From Gemmatales bacterium (lineage in GTDB: Bacteria > Planctomycetota > Planctomycetia > Gemmatales > HRBIN36), in the NCBI GenBank assembly GCA_041640595.1, contig JBEPZY010000006.1, forward strand, positions 160,001 through 224,000: a stretch of 64,000 nucleotides of DNA. Direction: 5' to 3'. How positions within the stretch are numbered: position 1 is the first letter of the stretch; every line of letters begins with the position of its first letter. The notes under the pieces were generated by a model. The model saw only the letters and a program-made list of their open reading frames with translations, did no database searches and was not told where the DNA came from. The position numbers and the translations under genes were made by a program. Shown piece after piece: positions 1 through 9,698 of the stretch.

Positions 1-2
1 CC

Positions 3-836
3 GCTCGCCGAGCTGCTGCCGAGGAAAAACTGGTCATGGTCTTGCATGTTTCGGGCCATTTCGAAGACCCCGGGCTGACCTGAAACAATGCCGAGGCACT
101 CCGGGTGAGCGCCCTGGCTGATCCCCGCGTGGGCGAGTTTGTGCGGGAGCATTTTGTGTGTTCCTTCCAGAAAGTCGGGACGTTTCGCATTGTCGGCGGG
201 CAGAAACAGGGCGGGAACGTGGCCACGTATTTCTGCGCTCCCGATGGCCGGGTCTTGCACGTCATTCCGGGCCCGGTTGGAGCGGAGCAATTTCTAGCGG
301 AAGCCCGCTGGGTGGTTGACAGCGTGCGGCGCGGACTCCAGGAAAGCAAAAAGACAGGTAAGCTGTTCAAAGTGCTGTTCCGCGAATACCATGCCGAGCG
401 GTTACGCAACCAGTATGGCCTGGTGGTGGAGCCGGCACGCTTTGATGTGGATACGGAAGCGCCGGGGGCACTCAGTTACCGCGATCCCACCGGTCGGCCC
501 CTTGCTCCGGTGTTGCTGCCGCCGCCTCTGCACGGGCCGGATGTGACATTCGGCCAGGATCTGTTGCAACAACGGCAAGCCAAAGAAGCCGCCCATCCGC
601 TGGCGCAGACAGTTCCCGGTATTGATGGGCGTCGCTGGGCACTGGGACCGCTCGCGCAAGCGCATCGGTTGCTGGCTGCCCATGCCCTGCAGCCGATTGA
701 CAAACTCTACGGCACCGTCTTCGAGAACATCCTGGGCGAAAAAATTTCCACCAAGCCGGTCGAAATTGTCACGCCATTCCCTTGGCGTCCCGAAGGCAAA
801 CGCGGCCAACCGCTGCCATTACCCGCACGGCCCTAA
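3..836 (+). CDS. Thioredoxin-like protein, probable selenoprotein (in-frame TGA at 81-83), 5' end outside the window; the ORF track shows only 105..836
   Basis: The frame of ORF 105..836 is open from base 3: ARRAAAEEKLVMVLHVSGHFEDPGLT-TGA-NNAEALRVSALADPRVGEFVREHFVC. It later has a ...TYFCAPDGRVLHVIPG segment typical of a Trx-fold beta hairpin. Confidence 0.7.
90..118 (+). other. Putative bacterial SECIS hairpin
   Basis: GCCGAGGCACTC-CGGGT-GAGCGCCCTGGC: 12-position stem with 9 Watson-Crick pairs, 1 G-U pair and 2 A.C mismatches. The 5-nt G-rich loop starts 18 nt after the TGA. Confidence 0.6.
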
Positions 837-959: not shown

Positions 960-1364
960 TCAGGCGCGGACTTTACGGGCGAGGCGGAGCATGGCGCGGC
1001 AGCGTTCCCGTTGTTGCATCAGACGCCGTCGCTCCTGAGGCGAAACCGTGGCCGGCACTGGTTGCGCCAGTTCGGATTCCAGAGCAGCGGCGTCCAGTTC
1101 GCTGGCGGGAATGGCTCGCGCGGTCAGGAGCGTTACCGTGTTGCGCTTGATCTGCACAAAGCCGCCGTCCACGAAATACTGCCGTACTTCTTCGCCCCGC
1201 CGCAAACGCAATTCGCCGAATCCTAACCGTCCCACCAGCGGAGCGCGACCGGGTAACACGCCGAGTTCGCCATCATAAAGTGGCACGGCCACGAAATCGG
1301 CTGATTCATCCACCACAGTGCGTTCCGGGGTAATCACCAGACAGTGCAATCGTTCCGCGGCCAT
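960..1364 (-). CDS. atpC: ATP synthase F1 epsilon subunit
   Basis: VITPER...GELGVLPGRAPL...VDGGFVQ motif; last gene of the atp operon. Confidence 0.95.
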   Translation of the reverse strand: MAAERLHCLVITPERTVVDESADFVAVPLYDGELGVLPGRAPLVGRLGFGELRLRRGEEVRQYFVDGGFVQIKRNTVTLLTARAIPASELDAAALESELAQPVPATVSPQERRRLMQQRERCRAMLRLARKVRA

Positions 1365-1427
1365 GCTGCAAATCTCGCTGAGACGTACCAGGGCCTGGTG
1401 AGGCCCAATGCTTTTCGGAAGACCATC

Positions 1428-3945
<2,518 letters not shown>

Positions 3946-3991
3946 AAGTTTGCCTCTCCCGATCCTCAGCGCACAGCAAGATTGGTTGCGT

Positions 3992-5680
3992 TTAGGCCGG
4001 CGGCTTGAATTGCGTCTGGAAGAATTCGATCGCCTTGACCAGACCGGCTTCGATTTCCGGCGTGATCTTCTTTTCGCGGATGAGAGCGTTGCGGACCTCC
4101 GGCACCTGTTCGCGCATGAAGCGTAAAAATTGTTCTTCCCAGGCGGCGACGTGGCGGATAGGCACGGAATCCAGGTAACCGCGTGTGCCGGCGAAGATGA
4201 TCATCACCTGATCGGCGACGTGCATCGGTTTGTATTGCGGTTGCTTGAGAATTTCCACCATGCGGTAACCGCGGTCAAGCTGCGCCTGCGTCGCTTTATC
4301 GAGTTCGGTGCCGAGCTGGGCAAACGCTTCCAGTTCACGGAAGGCCGCCAGGTCCAGTCGCAGGCTCCCGGCCACCTGTTTCATAGCGGGGATCTGTGCT
4401 TTTCCGCCGACACGCGAGACCGAAATACCCACGTCAATCGCTGGTCGCACGCCGGCAAAGAAAAGGCTCGGTTGCAAATAAATCTGGCCGTCGGTGATCG
4501 AAATGACGTTGGTGGGAATGTACGCGGAGACCTCGCCTTCGAGCGTTTCGATGATCGGCAACGCTGTCAGTGAGCCACCGGATTTCGGCAGCTTAGCCAG
4601 CTTATGCCCCGGATACTCGGGGAGGACCACCTCCTGAGCGTGCTTCTTTTCCAGGGGGCCTTTGAAAACGCGAGGCGAGCCATCGGGGTTACGCACCGCC
4701 GAATGTTCCGCCGTCACCTCTTTATCCGGGACGGATTCGGGAACGATCACCCAGTGTTCAGCTAACTTGGCCGAGCGCTCGAGCAAGCGGGAGTGGCAAT
4801 AGAAAATGTCGCCAGGATATGCCTCGCGCCCTGGTGGACGACGCATCAAGAGCGACAGTTGCCGATAAGCCGCCGCCTGTTTGCTCAGGTCATCGTACAC
4901 GCAAAGAGTATCGCGGCCCTGTTCGTACATGTAATACTCGGCCATAGCGCAGCCGGCGTAAGGAGCGATATACTGCAACGCTGCCGGGGCCGACGACGAC
5001 GCAACCACGACAATGGTGTAATCCATTGCCCCGTGTTGCCGCAAAGCCTCGATCACCTGGGCAACGGTGGATTCCTTCTGGCCGATGGCGACATACACGC
5101 AAATAACGTCCTCATCCTTCTGGTTGATGATGGTGTCCACGGCGATGGCAGTTTTGCCCGTTTTGCGGTCGCCGATAATGAGTTCCCGCTGGCCGCGACC
5201 GATCGGCGTCATCGAATCAATGGCTTTGATGCCCGTCTGCAAGGGCACGTTGACGGGTTGCCTTTCGGCAACACCGGGAGCCGGCGATTCCACCAGACGT
5301 GTGTACGGGGTAACAATCGGTCCTTTACCGTCGAGGGGATTGCCGAGCGGGTCGACCACCCGGCCGATCATAGCATCGCCGACCGGCACTCGCAACAATT
5401 GCCCAGTAGCCCGCACCTCATCGCCTTCACGAATCTCCAGGTAATCACCGAGGATGATCACACCGACCGAAGTTTCCTCGAGGTTGAAGGCCAAGCCCAT
5501 GACGCCGGTACGAGTGAACTCGACCATTTCGCCGGACATCACCCCGCCCAAACCATAGACGCGGGCAATGCCATCACCGACTTCCAGAACCCGGCCGATT
5601 TCCCGCGCTTCCAATTCCGCGCGATATTGTTCAATCTCCGCTTGCAGAACAGAAACGATCTCGTTGGGTTTGAATCGCAT
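3992..5680 (-). CDS. atpA: ATP synthase F1 alpha subunit
   Basis: [33 protein letters not shown]. Confidence 0.99.
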
Positions 5681-6302
5681 AGGAAGCCCTCGCCAGAAGT
5701 TCTTTTTCGAGTTTGCTCAGTCGGCTGCGGACCGAGCCGTCGAAGACCCAATCGCCGATCCGTACCACCAGTCCACCAAGCAATTCAGGCTCGACGCGAT
5801 TGGTCACCAGTGGTTCGAGCCGGAAGATGTCGCGGAGTTGACCAGCGATCCGCTCGAGGTAAGCTTCCCCCAGAGGGACGGCGGACTGCACTTCCACGCG
5901 GACCCGGCGTGCTTCCCGGTCACGCAGTTGCCGATAGGCACGCACGATGGTTCGCAATAACGGCAAGCGGTCGTGGTCGTTGAGCACCAGCAGGAAGTTT
6001 AATACCAGCGGATGTGCCCGACCGGTAAACAACCGGGAAATGGTTTCCGCCTTCCGCCGACGGGAAATGATGCCGCTTGTAAGAAAAAGTTCCAGTTCCG
6101 GAGCACTGGTGAACACGTCATCCACCAGGGAATCCAGTTCTTCCAGAACCTGTTCTTCGGCCTGCTGGGCACGAGCAGCGCGAAGCAATGCCTCGGCATA
6201 CACGCGGGCGATCTGCTGGCCGCGAATGTCCAGCACGGTCGGATAGACAGGTCGATCCGCGACCTGTGGCTTGGGATAAGTATGCTGGTGCTCTTCAGTC
6301 AT
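5631..6302 (-). CDS. atpH: ATP synthase F1 delta subunit
   Basis: [28 protein letters not shown]; 3' end overlaps the atpA start by 50 nt. Confidence 0.95.
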
Positions 6303-6363
6303 GTGAGCTGGTCATCTGAATTCCAAGGAGGGAAAAATCGAGGCAAGCAGCACTGCCAGCAAA

Positions 6364-7053
6364 TCAGGGCTGGTAATTGCCCACCAGTGCCATGTGTTCG
6401 CGTTCGTAAGCCTCGCCGTGTTGCCGTAACTCTGCGAGTGCCTCATCCAGAAGCCGACGATGATCCTCTTCGCTCAGCGACCTGCGGATAGCCTTTTCCG
6501 AAACCAACACGGCCAGGCGTACCGCAGATTGCCAGAGTTCCTGCAAAGCCTGGTCGCGAGCTCGCGCCAGTTCACGCAGCAGTCGTTCGCGCTCGGCCTG
6601 GACTTCGGCCAAACCGCGTGCGCGAATCTCCTCGGCAGTGCGCTCGGCATCGCGGCGGGCTTCGTCGAGAATTTCCCGCACCTTCTCGCCGGCTCGTTGC
6701 ATTTCCTGCTGCAACTGGGATCGGATACGTTCGGCTTCCGCACGGGCTTGTTCAGCCTCCTGCAGAGCCCGGCGGATGCTTTCTTCGCGCTTGCGCAGGC
6801 CTTCGAGCATCGGTCGCCAGGCCAGTTTGCGCAGCACCACCAGCAGCAGGCCGAACACGACCAGGCTCCACACCGCCAGGTCGAGCGAGAAGGATAAAGG
6901 TCCTTCCTCGCCCTCAGCATGGCCATGCCCGGCTTCCGCGGCACCAGTGCAGTCCGGCATCAGCAACCACCAGGTCGCGCACCAGGCCAGCACCACAACC
7001 CCACGGGCCAGCCAGTCGGCTCGACCCCACCAGCGCTGTAGGCCCGAAACCAT
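6364..7053 (-). CDS. atpF: ATP synthase Fo subunit b, with N-terminal signal-like extension
   Basis: WSLVVFGLLLVVLRKLAWRPM TM segment followed by a long coiled coil; ATG at 7053 preceded by GGAG. Confidence 0.93.
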   Translation of the reverse strand: MVSGLQRWWGRADWLARGVVVLAWCATWWLLMPDCTGAAEAGHGHAEGEEGPLSFSLDLAVWSLVVFGLLLVVLRKLAWRPMLEGLRKREESIRRALQEAEQARAEAERIRSQLQQEMQRAGEKVREILDEARRDAERTAEEIRARGLAEVQAERERLLRELARARDQALQELWQSAVRLAVLVSEKAIRRSLSEEDHRRLLDEALAELRQHGEAYEREHMALVGNYQP

Positions 7054-7146
7054 CGAATCTTTCCTCCACTTTACAAGGCAGATAAGCACCAAGCCGGCCG
7101 AAGGCGGCGTTTTCTTCTGTCGGGCTGTACCCTGGCCAGCCGCTGA

Positions 7147-7461
7147 TTAGGCCTTGACCGCCATGATGATGCACACGATCAGGGCGAAGAAAGTCGCACC
7201 TTCCAGCAGCGCGGCAATGATCAGCATACCGGTCTGAATGCGGGGTGCGATTTCCGGCTGCCGGGCCATGCTTTCCAGAGCGGCCTGGCCAATTCGACCG
7301 AATCCCCAGCCAGCACCGATCAGCACCAGCGCTGTGCCAAAGCCAGCACCGACAGCGTTCCCGTAAAACTGATGGGCCCCCTGATCTACCGCCAGTGCGG
7401 GCATGGCCAGCACCAGCAGCGCAATCATCACCAGACCCACGCTTGCGAGCATCTGCTTCAT
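7147..7461 (-). CDS. atpE: ATP synthase Fo subunit c
   Basis: GAGWGFG, ARQPE loop, ion-binding Glu in ALLEGAT; GGAGG RBS before ATG 7461. Confidence 0.97.
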   Translation of the reverse strand: MKQMLASVGLVMIALLVLAMPALAVDQGAHQFYGNAVGAGFGTALVLIGAGWGFGRIGQAALESMARQPEIAPRIQTGMLIIAALLEGATFFALIVCIIMAVKA

Positions 7462-7655
7462 CGTTCCTCCTTTCTGTGCATCAATGTCTTGTGGCACCGC
7501 TTCTAGTGCCAGTCTATCGCGTGCTCCGCCAATTCCCAGAAATGGGAATGCAGTATCCCATTCGTTTAGCAAGCAAGAGAATCGCAGCCAGAGATGGTCG
7601 CCAGCGGTGGCGGCAGGCCCACCGATTGGCAAGAGGATGTCCCTGCACCTTTCGC

Positions 7656-8687
7656 CTAATGTTCCATGTGCAGCTGGAAGCCGAGGAAAAGCGCAGTCAG
7701 GAAGGTGAAAATGAACGCCTGCAAAAACGCAACAAAGATTTCCAGCAAACTTAATGCCACGACGCCGAACACACTTCCCAGGGTAACGATCCCCCAGACG
7801 ACTGGCCCGGCGTTTTTGGCCATGACAATGAACGCCATGATAAACGCCAGCACGGTGTGGCCGGCGAAAATGTTAGCGAAGAGTCGCACAGCCAGAACGG
7901 TGGCCTTGATGAAATGTCCGAGGAACTCAATGGCGACGATCATCACAATCAGCGGAAAGCCGAAGATCAATGGAATTCCCGTGTCCGGAACATGGGCGCG
8001 GATGTATCGCCACAATCCCACGATCGGAGCCAGTAACCAGGGAACCCGGGACGACGCGGAATCCGGTTGGGACGATCCCCGATGGCCATGCTCCGCGTGC
8101 CCGACCGGGTGGTGAGTTGCCGCTGGAGATTCTGCTGGGCGTTCTTCGTGCATGGGATGCTCATGGTGGTCGGAATGTTCATCGTGGCCATGATGCCCAC
8201 CGTGTTGGAGCTGGTATTGGATTGCCGCACCGTGAATCAGCAGGAAACTGCAAAAGGCCAGCGCTCCGGTTACGCTCAAATCACCGGTGGGCGACCCCAG
8301 AAACGGTATCATGCCCAGCAGATTGCAAAACAATATGAACAGGAAAACAGTCCAGATGTACGGAACAAAGCGGTCGGCGTCCCGCTCACCAATATACGGT
8401 TTGGCCACCTCATCACGCAGGAAGGTCAGGATCGCCTCAAAACAATTCCAGAAGAACCCTCGGGGTGGCCCACCGCTGCGAGCACGCCGGGCGATCGGCA
8501 CGTAAATCGCCACAAGCAATAGCGCCGCCAGCAACTCGATCACCATGAATTTGGTGATCTGGAGCGGCTTTTCCCGAAACGGAAGCGGAATGGCCGGCAG
8601 GTGAATTTCCACTTTGCCGGTCAGGCTGTTGTCGAAAAATGTCCAGACGGCACTGTCTTTCGAATGTTCAAGAGGGCTGTGAGCCAT
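7656..8687 (-). CDS. atpB: ATP synthase Fo subunit a
   Basis: NLLGMIP, AVRLFANIFAGH (essential Arg), LQAFIFTFL. Confidence 0.97.
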   Translation of the reverse strand: MAHSPLEHSKDSAVWTFFDNSLTGKVEIHLPAIPLPFREKPLQITKFMVIELLAALLLVAIYVPIARRARSGGPPRGFFWNCFEAILTFLRDEVAKPYIGERDADRFVPYIWTVFLFILFCNLLGMIPFLGSPTGDLSVTGALAFCSFLLIHGAAIQYQLQHGGHHGHDEHSDHHEHPMHEERPAESPAATHHPVGHAEHGHRGSSQPDSASSRVPWLLAPIVGLWRYIRAHVPDTGIPLIFGFPLIVMIVAIEFLGHFIKATVLAVRLFANIFAGHTVLAFIMAFIVMAKNAGPVVWGIVTLGSVFGVVALSLLEIFVAFLQAFIFTFLTALFLGFQLHMEH

Positions 8688-8780
8688 ACCGGTTCAAGTT
8701 CTTTTAGGTGCATGCTGAGCGTAGCCGCGCTGAGAAAGCGGGACGCTAGCAAGTTTAGTACCGATTCTCGAAGCAATCGC

Positions 8781-9158
8781 TCACCGGTTTGGAATTTTGC
8801 GGATGGTGAAGACTAGTTCGACACCCAGCGTTGCCAAATATGCAGCCGCCAGGGGCACCCAGAAAGCCAGTCCATCGCCCCACGAAGCTGTAAAGGCCAG
8901 CACCAGGGCACCGCCGAGAGTCAATACCAGGCGAATCCCCGTGCCCATCAGCGCCAGCAAAGGAAAGTTCCCGCCCGATACTCGAGCGGCCCTGGCGGTG
9001 AAAATGTGAGCGGTCAGCGCAGGAATGAGCACCAGAGCCAGGGCAGCGATTACCGGCACAGAGGAATCGCTTGCGCTGGCCCCAACTGCCAGACCACCGA
9101 TCATCGCCGCGGCTATAGATACCGCAGCAAGCAAGCCGATTTCGAGCAGTTCGCCTAT
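8781..9158 (-). CDS. AtpI-like membrane protein with about 4 TM helices (start codon uncertain)
   Basis: Four hydrophobic stretches, GIRLVL motif, position between the atpZ-like gene and atpB. Confidence 0.65.
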   Translation of the reverse strand: MGELLEIGLLAAVSIAAAMIGGLAVGASASDSSVPVIAALALVLIPALTAHIFTARAARVSGGNFPLLALMGTGIRLVLTLGGALVLAFTASWGDGLAFWVPLAAAYLATLGVELVFTIRKIPNR

Positions 9159-9376
9159 CGCGACGAGCCGCCCGGAGGTTCCCTCAGGAGCAACCACAGA
9201 TGGGTCATTCCTACAGCAAAGCCCACGATTACTCCGAGGATCACCATCCACGGGCTTGTTCCCCAGCGATAATCGAGCCAGGCCCCCAGCGCAATGGGTA
9301 TGACCATCTCCAACCCGATCTGGCCCAGGGCGAAGTAGCGTCCCAGTTCCCGAGGACCGACGTCGCTCCTTCTCAC
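9155..9376 (-). CDS. AtpZ/AtpI-family 2-TM protein (ATP synthase gene 1)
   Basis: IGLEMVIPIALGAWLDYRWGTSPWMVILGVIVGF signature; GTG at 9376 with GGAG upstream. Confidence 0.85.
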   Translation of the reverse strand: MRRSDVGPRELGRYFALGQIGLEMVIPIALGAWLDYRWGTSPWMVILGVIVGFAVGMTHLWLLLREPPGGSSR

Positions 9377-9698
9377 TGAGTTGCTCCGCCATCTTCCCCG
9401 TCTTGGGCAATTCGCTCCAGTGGCTAATCCCCATGCCAGTCGGCTTCTTTCACGCTGGGGCAAGCAATACCAGCTGCCGCGTGCGTCCCCGGCCTGGCTA
9501 GCTGTTTGCCTGGCCGGTATTCGTGGCGTGTGGAAAGCTATTCTGGAACTGCTCCCGCGAAAGTCAACCGGTACCCGGAAAATTTTTCCAAACTCACCGA
9601 GTCCGGCCAAATTTTATAGACCCAAGAGGCTGCCTCTAAACGACTTCCGCAGCTTAATCGCTCAGCGAGCCGATTGGCGAGAATTATCCGCTTCGCAC

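Follow-up and report, generated by a model that had tools for sequence, protein, structure and literature searches.

Does the interrupted reading frame at the start of the window, the whole 64,000-nucleotide stretch of Gemmatales DNA analysed here, encode two proteins or one selenoprotein whose selenocysteine (Sec, U) codon has been taken for a stop, and, if the latter, how is it related to animal selenoprotein N (SELENON)? A sequence-only reading of the locus had proposed a bacterial SelN-like selenoprotein. The explanation that we favour, with a probability of about 0.87 as a whole, is a single gene for an exported thioredoxin-fold selenoprotein of a clade with a Thr-Sec (T-U) site, distantly paralogous to SELENON.

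The frame running from base 3 to base 836 is open except for one internal stop, the TGA at 81–83 (+), in the very peptide that the sequence-only reading had quoted. The frame extends upstream of the window as far as an ATG at G000:C6:159814, which lies 187 nt ahead of base 1 and has a GGAGG on its 5′ side. Reading TGA as U yields a protein of 340 residues with Sec at position 90. Positions 1–836 (+) hold the 3′ portion of this 340-codon gene, base 3 opening codon 64 and a TAA at 834–836 closing the frame; the 5′ part, with the ATG and GGAGG, signal-peptide-like residues 1–33 and a conserved Cys47, lies before the window from G000:C6:159814 onwards (L010:2814–3836). The N-terminus is basic, then hydrophobic, and ends in VWA; a crude hydropathy test finds an N-terminal hydrophobic stretch in 57 of 60 orthologues. 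Export through this predicted signal peptide, by the Sec pathway to the periplasm, is highly probable. A promoter scan returned no promoter. A sequencing error at the TGA was considered and ruled out, since the codon is unchanged in a contig that another study obtained for this region. A contig from an RNA library also covers the TGA, with no difference listed; contigs cannot show transcription, as DNA may be present.

Gene callers place a start at the GTG at 105–107 (+), and 75 of 150 matches in the protein database begin at its equivalent, so that annotation pipelines do split the gene, as had been anticipated. The corresponding explanation posits two coupled genes, an 89-residue exported peptide ending at a true TGA stop and a protein restarting at the GTG; beyond the annotation itself, it can draw on the presence of GTG in 56 of 60 genome loci and on a GAGG at 93–96, 8 nt upstream of the GTG in the window copy. 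Four lines of evidence oppose it. First, the GTG equivalent is found in 73 of 101 distinct sequences and is replaced by GCG, GTC, CGG, GAG and others in the remaining 28, and there is therefore no conserved start. Second, the seven codons from the stop to the putative start are conserved as protein. Third, neither TAA nor TAG ever takes the place of the TGA, although long frames of the source genome (n = 846) end in TAA (278), TAG (208) and TGA (360). Fourth, the cut would divide a thioredoxin fold, and uninterrupted homologues exist. We regard two genes as extremely improbable and do not keep the GTG as a start codon. It lies inside an RNA hairpin, as claimed (loop 102–106, G107 pairing with C101); the accompanying statement that it has no strong Shine–Dalgarno sequence needs qualifying, as the window copy carries the weak GAGG at a site where most orthologues read GAAGCG.

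The TGA column is invariant. Genome searches gave 64 loci, of which seven fall short of column 90, and TGA occupies the column in all 57 that cover it (the gene itself, two duplicates, two distant relatives and the rest). A metagenome scan that allowed any codon at the column found TGA in 120 of 120 among the matches listed, and versions of the same pattern with TAC, TAT, TAG, TGC, TGT or TGG were absent from the whole metagenome collection; TAA, which the pattern did not include, occurs in none of the 57 and 120 loci. Homologues with TAA or TAG, which the sequence-only reading had named as a ground for abandoning it, were thus not encountered. The comparison it had suggested across Planctomycetota came out in its favour on the flanks as well: in 53 distinct close loci the protein is conserved on both sides of the TGA, the 5′ codons being free at third positions and codons +5 to +8 nearly fixed. 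The close relatives with names belong to Gemmatales, Gemmataceae and other Planctomycetota. Four loci (L023, L037, L042 and L053) are titled ‘uncultured Alcaligenaceae’ and hold Gemmataceae-like copies of 54–59% identity, and their titles may be mislabelled. Two others, L067 and L068, from two large-contig assemblies, carry frameshifts 3′ of the Sec codon that are possibly assembly errors.

The source genome has the machinery for Sec insertion that the sequence-only reading had asked for: adjacent selA and selB, tRNA-Sec (selC), and a selD with its own in-frame TGA. In the wider sample of 401 Planctomycetota genomes, selA, the one marker tested outside the source genome, is present in 268. With a single-protein query, all 40 genomes with a TGA-containing match have selA. 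With a wider profile, TGA is present in 132 of 150 among the matches listed (a further 119 are not among them), spread over 75 genomes, and selA accompanies it in 75 of 75 against the background of 268/401; the genomes are related, so this statistic is overstated, and the position of the TGA at the Sec column was read in part of these loci. Four selA-less genomes have solely stop-free forms among the matches listed. These data also bear on a reading of the TGA as Trp or Gly under an alternative code, or of the gene as a pseudogene. One database protein, P0155, has W at the site, and a relative (L020; G006:C38:157972–158280, −) holds a degraded superfamily copy with extra in-frame stops 5′ of the Sec codon, likely a pseudogene itself. 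TGA is, however, the commonest stop of the source genome, and a recoded genome is therefore excluded; no TGG form was found in the metagenome pattern search, and dozens of families share a single TGA at the same column, in every case alongside selA. Both variants have a negligible chance of being correct, and from its conservation and distribution we judge it nearly certain that the TGA at 81–83 is a selenocysteine codon at which Sec90 is inserted.

A candidate bacterial SECIS (bSECIS) follows the TGA. Its upper hairpin occupies positions 96–112 (+), with 96–101 pairing with 107–112 around the loop CGGGU at 102–106, 18 nt after the UGA, and it can be extended to 90–118. Rules given in PMC13188914 call for a loop of 3–9 nt, a G in the first two loop positions, a distance of 16–37 nt from the UGA and a minimum free energy of −7.5 or below; the window hairpin has a 5-nt loop, G103, a distance of 18 nt and −14.8 kcal/mol. 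Folded as a single sequence, it does not exceed shuffled sequences in stability (z −0.36 to 0.60), and support for the hairpin therefore comes from covariation, not energy. Pair 98:110, an A-C mismatch in the window copy, is G-C 83 times, A-U 7 times and C-G 5 times, and pair 101:107 is C-G 93 times and G-C 6 times. Changes on both sides number 12 at 98:110 (1.2 in shuffles) and 6 at 101:107 (0.5 in shuffles), values reached by none of 5000 column shuffles; because such shuffles ignore relatedness and kin are not independent, these statistics are overstated. G103 is invariant in 101 of 101 distinct sequences, a position also demanded by the Arg codon at U+7. In the proposed mechanism, SelB would bind this hairpin and deliver Sec-tRNA to the UGA. 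A script that accepts hairpins without mismatches had picked an alternative stem in the window copy; this is an artefact of the A-C mismatch, and the alignment sets the register. An Rfam search of the gene region gave no match. Across 52 superfamily Sec loci, the script places the loop in two registers, 21 nt from the T of TGA in 6 loci (mainly T-U, some of the S-C-U clade described below) and 26–27 nt from it in 40. The T-U relatives L085–L087 are in the later register, so the hairpin has shifted by two codons more than once.

The claim of a thioredoxin fold was upheld by structure modelling. The model (pLDDT 90) finds its best match in 3f9u, with Z 10.9 and an rmsd of 1.9 Å over 103 residues (Foldseek E 7e-4). 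The domain spans residues 47–175, of which 64–175 are in the window (3–338, +), and is of the DsbD-gamma/DsbH/AGR/UAS type. It is followed at 339–833 (+) by a helical, proline-rich extension of 165 residues that ends in a conserved VFENILGEKIS helix and for which no fold or family match was found. The TGA falls where the redox residue had been predicted, as weak profile alignments (3ira, AGR2; E 0.03–0.15) put Sec90, in the motif T-U-N-N-A, on the first Cys of the CxxC or CxxS of solved thioredoxin-fold proteins. The protein has neither the CxxC or UxxC nor the cis-Pro of a classical dithiol thioredoxin; a GGNV, aligned with YP(V) of the S-C-U clade, stands in place of the cis-Pro. Residue U+3 is Ala in 60 of 60 orthologues (UxxA), in accord with the earlier statement that no resolving Cys is nearby. 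That statement holds within the motif; a Cys 39–52 residues before Sec in 60 of 60 orthologues and the Cys of a YFC motif in 58 of 60 (Cys141, at 234–236) are candidates for a distant resolving Cys. Relatives of the same fold, namely Thioredoxin_7 (PF13899), Thioredox_DsbH (PF03190), DsbD-gamma, AGR2-AGR3-ERp18 and UAS (3f9u, 2lst, 3ira, 2ju5, 3ph9 and 2dlx), match at Z 8.3–10.9 and 14–22% identity, with Sec on their first Cys. The window clade differs from them in a loop insertion before the redox residue, a long β-hairpin insertion, its C-terminal extension, and the lack of CxxC and cis-Pro.

Family models do not capture the protein. Neither Pfam nor NCBIfam has a model that the read-through sequence matches, even at E up to 10. 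PF13899 is matched weakly by 12 of 28 superfamily members (best E 8e-5), and 16 members other than the window protein reach at best E 0.037 in NCBIfam, at 13.7 bits against a cut-off of 275. In the ESM Atlas, queries with two natural Cys homologues led to bacterial clusters without a name (under 0.9) or to nothing usable, which is evidence of neither novelty nor absence. Among the 119 prokaryotic selenoprotein families of Table 1 in the 2026 catalogue PMC13188914, none is named SelN-like and none combines T-U-x-x-A with Arg+7. The thioredoxin-fold families catalogued there (Trx UxxC, Prx-like, DsbA/DsbG-like, SaoT, VPGUxxT NF041383, Trx7/PDZ NF041199, Sec.1/Sec.2) share the in-ORF SECIS, the fold and Sec/Cys exchange with the window protein, which differs in its T-U-x-x-A, its Arg+7 and its lack of any model match. 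By the comparisons made here, the T-U gene is a real selenoprotein of a large planctomycete superfamily absent from Pfam, NCBIfam and the 119-family table.

Homologues without Sec inform on the role of the residue. Cys forms, for which the sequence-only reading had suggested a search, do exist: the stop-free loci L099, L102 and L104 of a sister branch, two of them from genomes without selA, have TGC at the Sec column and 0–2 bp at the stem site of the Sec forms. Judged from their DNA, the hairpin is lost in these TGC forms. Within the T-U clade, Cys appears in protein records alone (P0152 and P0153; P0155 shows W), and a Cys form was not seen at the DNA level in the metagenome pattern search, which included TGC and TGT. 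P0152 carries a fused caspase-like domain (PF00656). In the set of 27 full-length protein homologues, the Sec column holds C in 5, S in 7, A in 5, G in 3, E in 2, D in 2, L in 1 and a gap in 2; the S, A, G, E and D forms indicate that some paralogues retain the fold without a redox residue. P0009, P0015, P0021, P0027, P0033, P0130 and similar proteins have an N-terminal membrane anchor, a long Pro-rich linker and S, A, E, G or D at the column, and these anchored paralogues are probably redox-inactive versions.

How Sec90 acts can be modelled from these features. It would occupy the site of the attacking Cys, with Ala at the resolving position and the invariant Arg seven residues on. Its target may be a disulfide or oxidised Cys on a specific client in the envelope, which the C-terminal extension would hold; the conserved Cys47 of the protein itself, or else an external DsbD-type dithiol carrier, would then reset Sec90. 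We infer such a mono-selenol oxidoreductase with even odds. Sec could instead be inserted without serving disulfide exchange: it could bind a metal or metalloid, sense or scavenge peroxide, or act as a regulatory switch on a binding protein, roles of the kind proposed for AGR2-like and SELENON-like proteins. The absence of a +3 resolving Cys and of cis-Pro, the occurrence of S, A, G, E or D at this position in paralogues, and the non-catalytic UAS and AGR domains among the nearest folds would fit such a role, and a 2026 review gives metal-ligand roles for some bacterial selenoproteins. The retention of Sec at the canonical nucleophile position across many clades, and its replacement by Cys in the sister branch, argue the other way. 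Sec/Cys exchange is the usual pattern of catalytic residues. For a metal ligand in particular, no metal-resistance neighbourhood was seen. A non-exchange role is a serious minority possibility, and the oxidoreductase remains our working model.

The T-U clade is one part of the superfamily. With an iterated profile, matches at E up to 1e-5 occur in 138 of 401 genomes, with as many as eight per genome (G179, G210, G264 and G271); the weakest of these matches are probably ordinary thioredoxins. The sites that define clades are T-U, C-U, L-U, A-U and S-C-U. An upstream G, the Sec column and an Arg seven residues on are invariant in 28 of 28 aligned rows; in the window this Arg (codon 102–104, +) coincides with the SECIS loop, as in the T-U clade generally, and its offset from Sec is that of Arg469 in SELENON. 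The source genome has a second Sec-containing member (L230:1351–2634, +; G000:C8:50746 region), of 428 residues with a signal-peptide-like start, which reads V-C-U-A-A-G-S-G-G-R and has its hairpin loop on the Arg+7 codon. At L232, L250, L258 and L261, superfamily selenoprotein genes occur in tandem pairs.

Kinship with SELENON is clearest in the S-C-U clade, found in 15 of 401 genomes and not in the source genome. Its members read G-x-L-D-D-E-S-C-U-G-S-G-K-x-L-R, have an extra N-terminal domain of 250 residues and continue for 100–127 residues past Sec. L273:994–2208 (+), L274, L275, L276, L290 and L294 encode exported two-domain proteins whose Sec motif is S-C-U-G or a close variant and whose genes carry a bSECIS, with L272, L277, L281, L283 and L293 as related loci; the genes are annotated as hypothetical proteins that end at the Cys before the TGA. 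Among the S-C-U loci, SCUG is exact in 6 of 11 read, Arg+7 is present in 11 of 11, and a GYIP-like motif lies 68–81 residues before Sec in 6 of 8. L273, L274 and L276 combine SCUG, Arg+7, an upstream GYIP and a C-terminal thioredoxin domain, as a SELENON-type protein should, and in L273 the three motifs are exact. A model of the clade (pLDDT 91) has a β-rich N-terminal domain, for which a single whole-model Foldseek search of the PDB gave no clear match. The motifs HAEF, PAQF-x-G and NVD of this N-terminal domain presumably occur in the same order in SELENON.

The Sec motif of human SELENON is SCUG (PMC12839072), and its further published anchors are U462, R466, R469, G360-Y-I-P363 (the latter from a duplication variant) and 128 residues after Sec. 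SELENON thus resembles the S-C-U clade in SCUG, GYIP and domain order; the spacing from GYIP to Sec is 99 in the human protein against 68–81 in the clade, whose U+4 is Lys, Gln or Thr, not Arg, and which has no EF-hand match. HHalign connects the T-U and S-C-U clades with a probability of 96.2 and E 2.2e-9, their Sec columns being in register, and a tree of 56 rows separates them with support of 100/99 and 99/99, the deeper branching order being left open. From these published anchors and the bacterial bridge clade, homology of the superfamily with SELENON is judged very probable, and the S-C-U-G clade is almost as probably the bacterial counterpart of SELENON.

The window gene itself could be taken for the bacterial orthologue of animal SELENON, given the shared G(x)7-8-U-(x)6-R pattern, the common fold class and the HHalign link to the S-C-U clade. 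It also resembles SELENON in being predicted extracytoplasmic, with a lone Sec without a +3 Cys, and in an RNA hairpin right after the UGA, where SELENON has its Sec redefinition hairpin (SRE). Against orthology, it reads L-T-U-N (T-U-N-N) in place of S-C-U-G, has Glu at U+4 and Sec at residue 90 of 340 in an N-terminal thioredoxin domain with 250 residues after it, lacks GYIP, an EF-hand Pfam match, a membrane anchor and the SELENON-type N-terminal domain, and carries its SECIS within the ORF, not in a 3′ UTR. The features of SELENON sit instead in another, well-supported clade. Orthology is thus very unlikely, and the gene is probably a distant paralogue of SELENON. The label ‘SelN-like’ stands at the level of the superfamily, by way of the HHalign link; for the window gene it does not, as the T-U clade is separate and without SCUG, Arg at U+4 or the N-terminal domain.

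Searches further afield were negative. Word-index searches of protein databases for eukaryotic SELENON gave bacterial-type, mostly TGA-truncated proteins among the best ~8000 candidates, which is weak evidence; the PDB copy searched holds no SELENON by sequence or fold and no solved SELENON structure, and viral contigs contain no S-C-U relatives. The literature searched, which mostly excludes subscription journals, has no mention of bacterial SELENON relatives or of the T-U family; this applies also to passages of PMC8639696, PMC3541580, PMC8704476, PMC7539508, PMC3473315, PMC4807772 and bioRxiv 10.1101/716472, and a term search of PMC12013277 gave no match. The planctomycete selenoprotein candidates of Table S9 in PMC4807772 and the supplements of PMC3473315 and PMC7539508 may bear on novelty. 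No papers on further SELENON variant positions were found.

The two hairpins invite comparison. A 2026 review (PMC12936836) likens the SEPN1 SRE, just after the UGA, to a bacterial SECIS. In the clade of the window gene, 22 nt lead from the T of TGA to the loop G, and c.1406G (R469Q) is equally far past c.1384T (U462). The Arg+7 codon carries the loop in the T-U clade, as it does in four loci of the S-C-U clade (L288, L289, L293 and, by the pick of the script, L283). Since Arg+7 alone dictates the 22-nt offset, and 40 of 52 loci have the loop at 26–27 nt, the coincidence is suggestive and descent hypothetical. Transfer in the direction from bacteria to eukaryotes is marginally favoured, and it is doubtful that the SRE is an inherited SECIS. 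The combined scenario, in which SELENON derives from the planctomycete superfamily, with the S-C-U-G clade as its full-length bacterial form, the window gene in a sister clade and the SRE as a relic of a bacterial SECIS, is unlikely.

The locus brings to light a selenoprotein superfamily that many Planctomycetota possess (the 138 of 401 genomes include some weak matches) and is cut in two by annotation. As a paralogue, the window gene matters mainly as an entry to this superfamily, and most of the interest lies in the SELENON-like sister clade. PMC12936836 still describes what SELENON does biochemically as ‘enigmatic’; soluble bacterial relatives and natural Cys forms would make the SELENON fold, the chemistry of its Sec and residues affected in myopathy, R469 among them, directly testable, and a bacterial SECIS origin of the SEPN1 SRE could be explored with them. 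Gene context gives no substrate, as no neighbour is conserved: the best clusters are found at 10 or fewer of 52 loci and are restricted by lineage. Downstream in the window, at 960–9434 (−), lie what we take to be F-type ATP synthase genes for epsilon, beta, gamma, alpha, delta, b, c and a, which converge on the selenoprotein gene and are not kept as neighbours in orthologues. Upstream of the gene, at G000:C6:150000–159240, we presume a cluster of a large multiheme cytochrome c, a cytochrome b and a Rieske protein (−), and a prepilin-type DUF1559-like gene (+).
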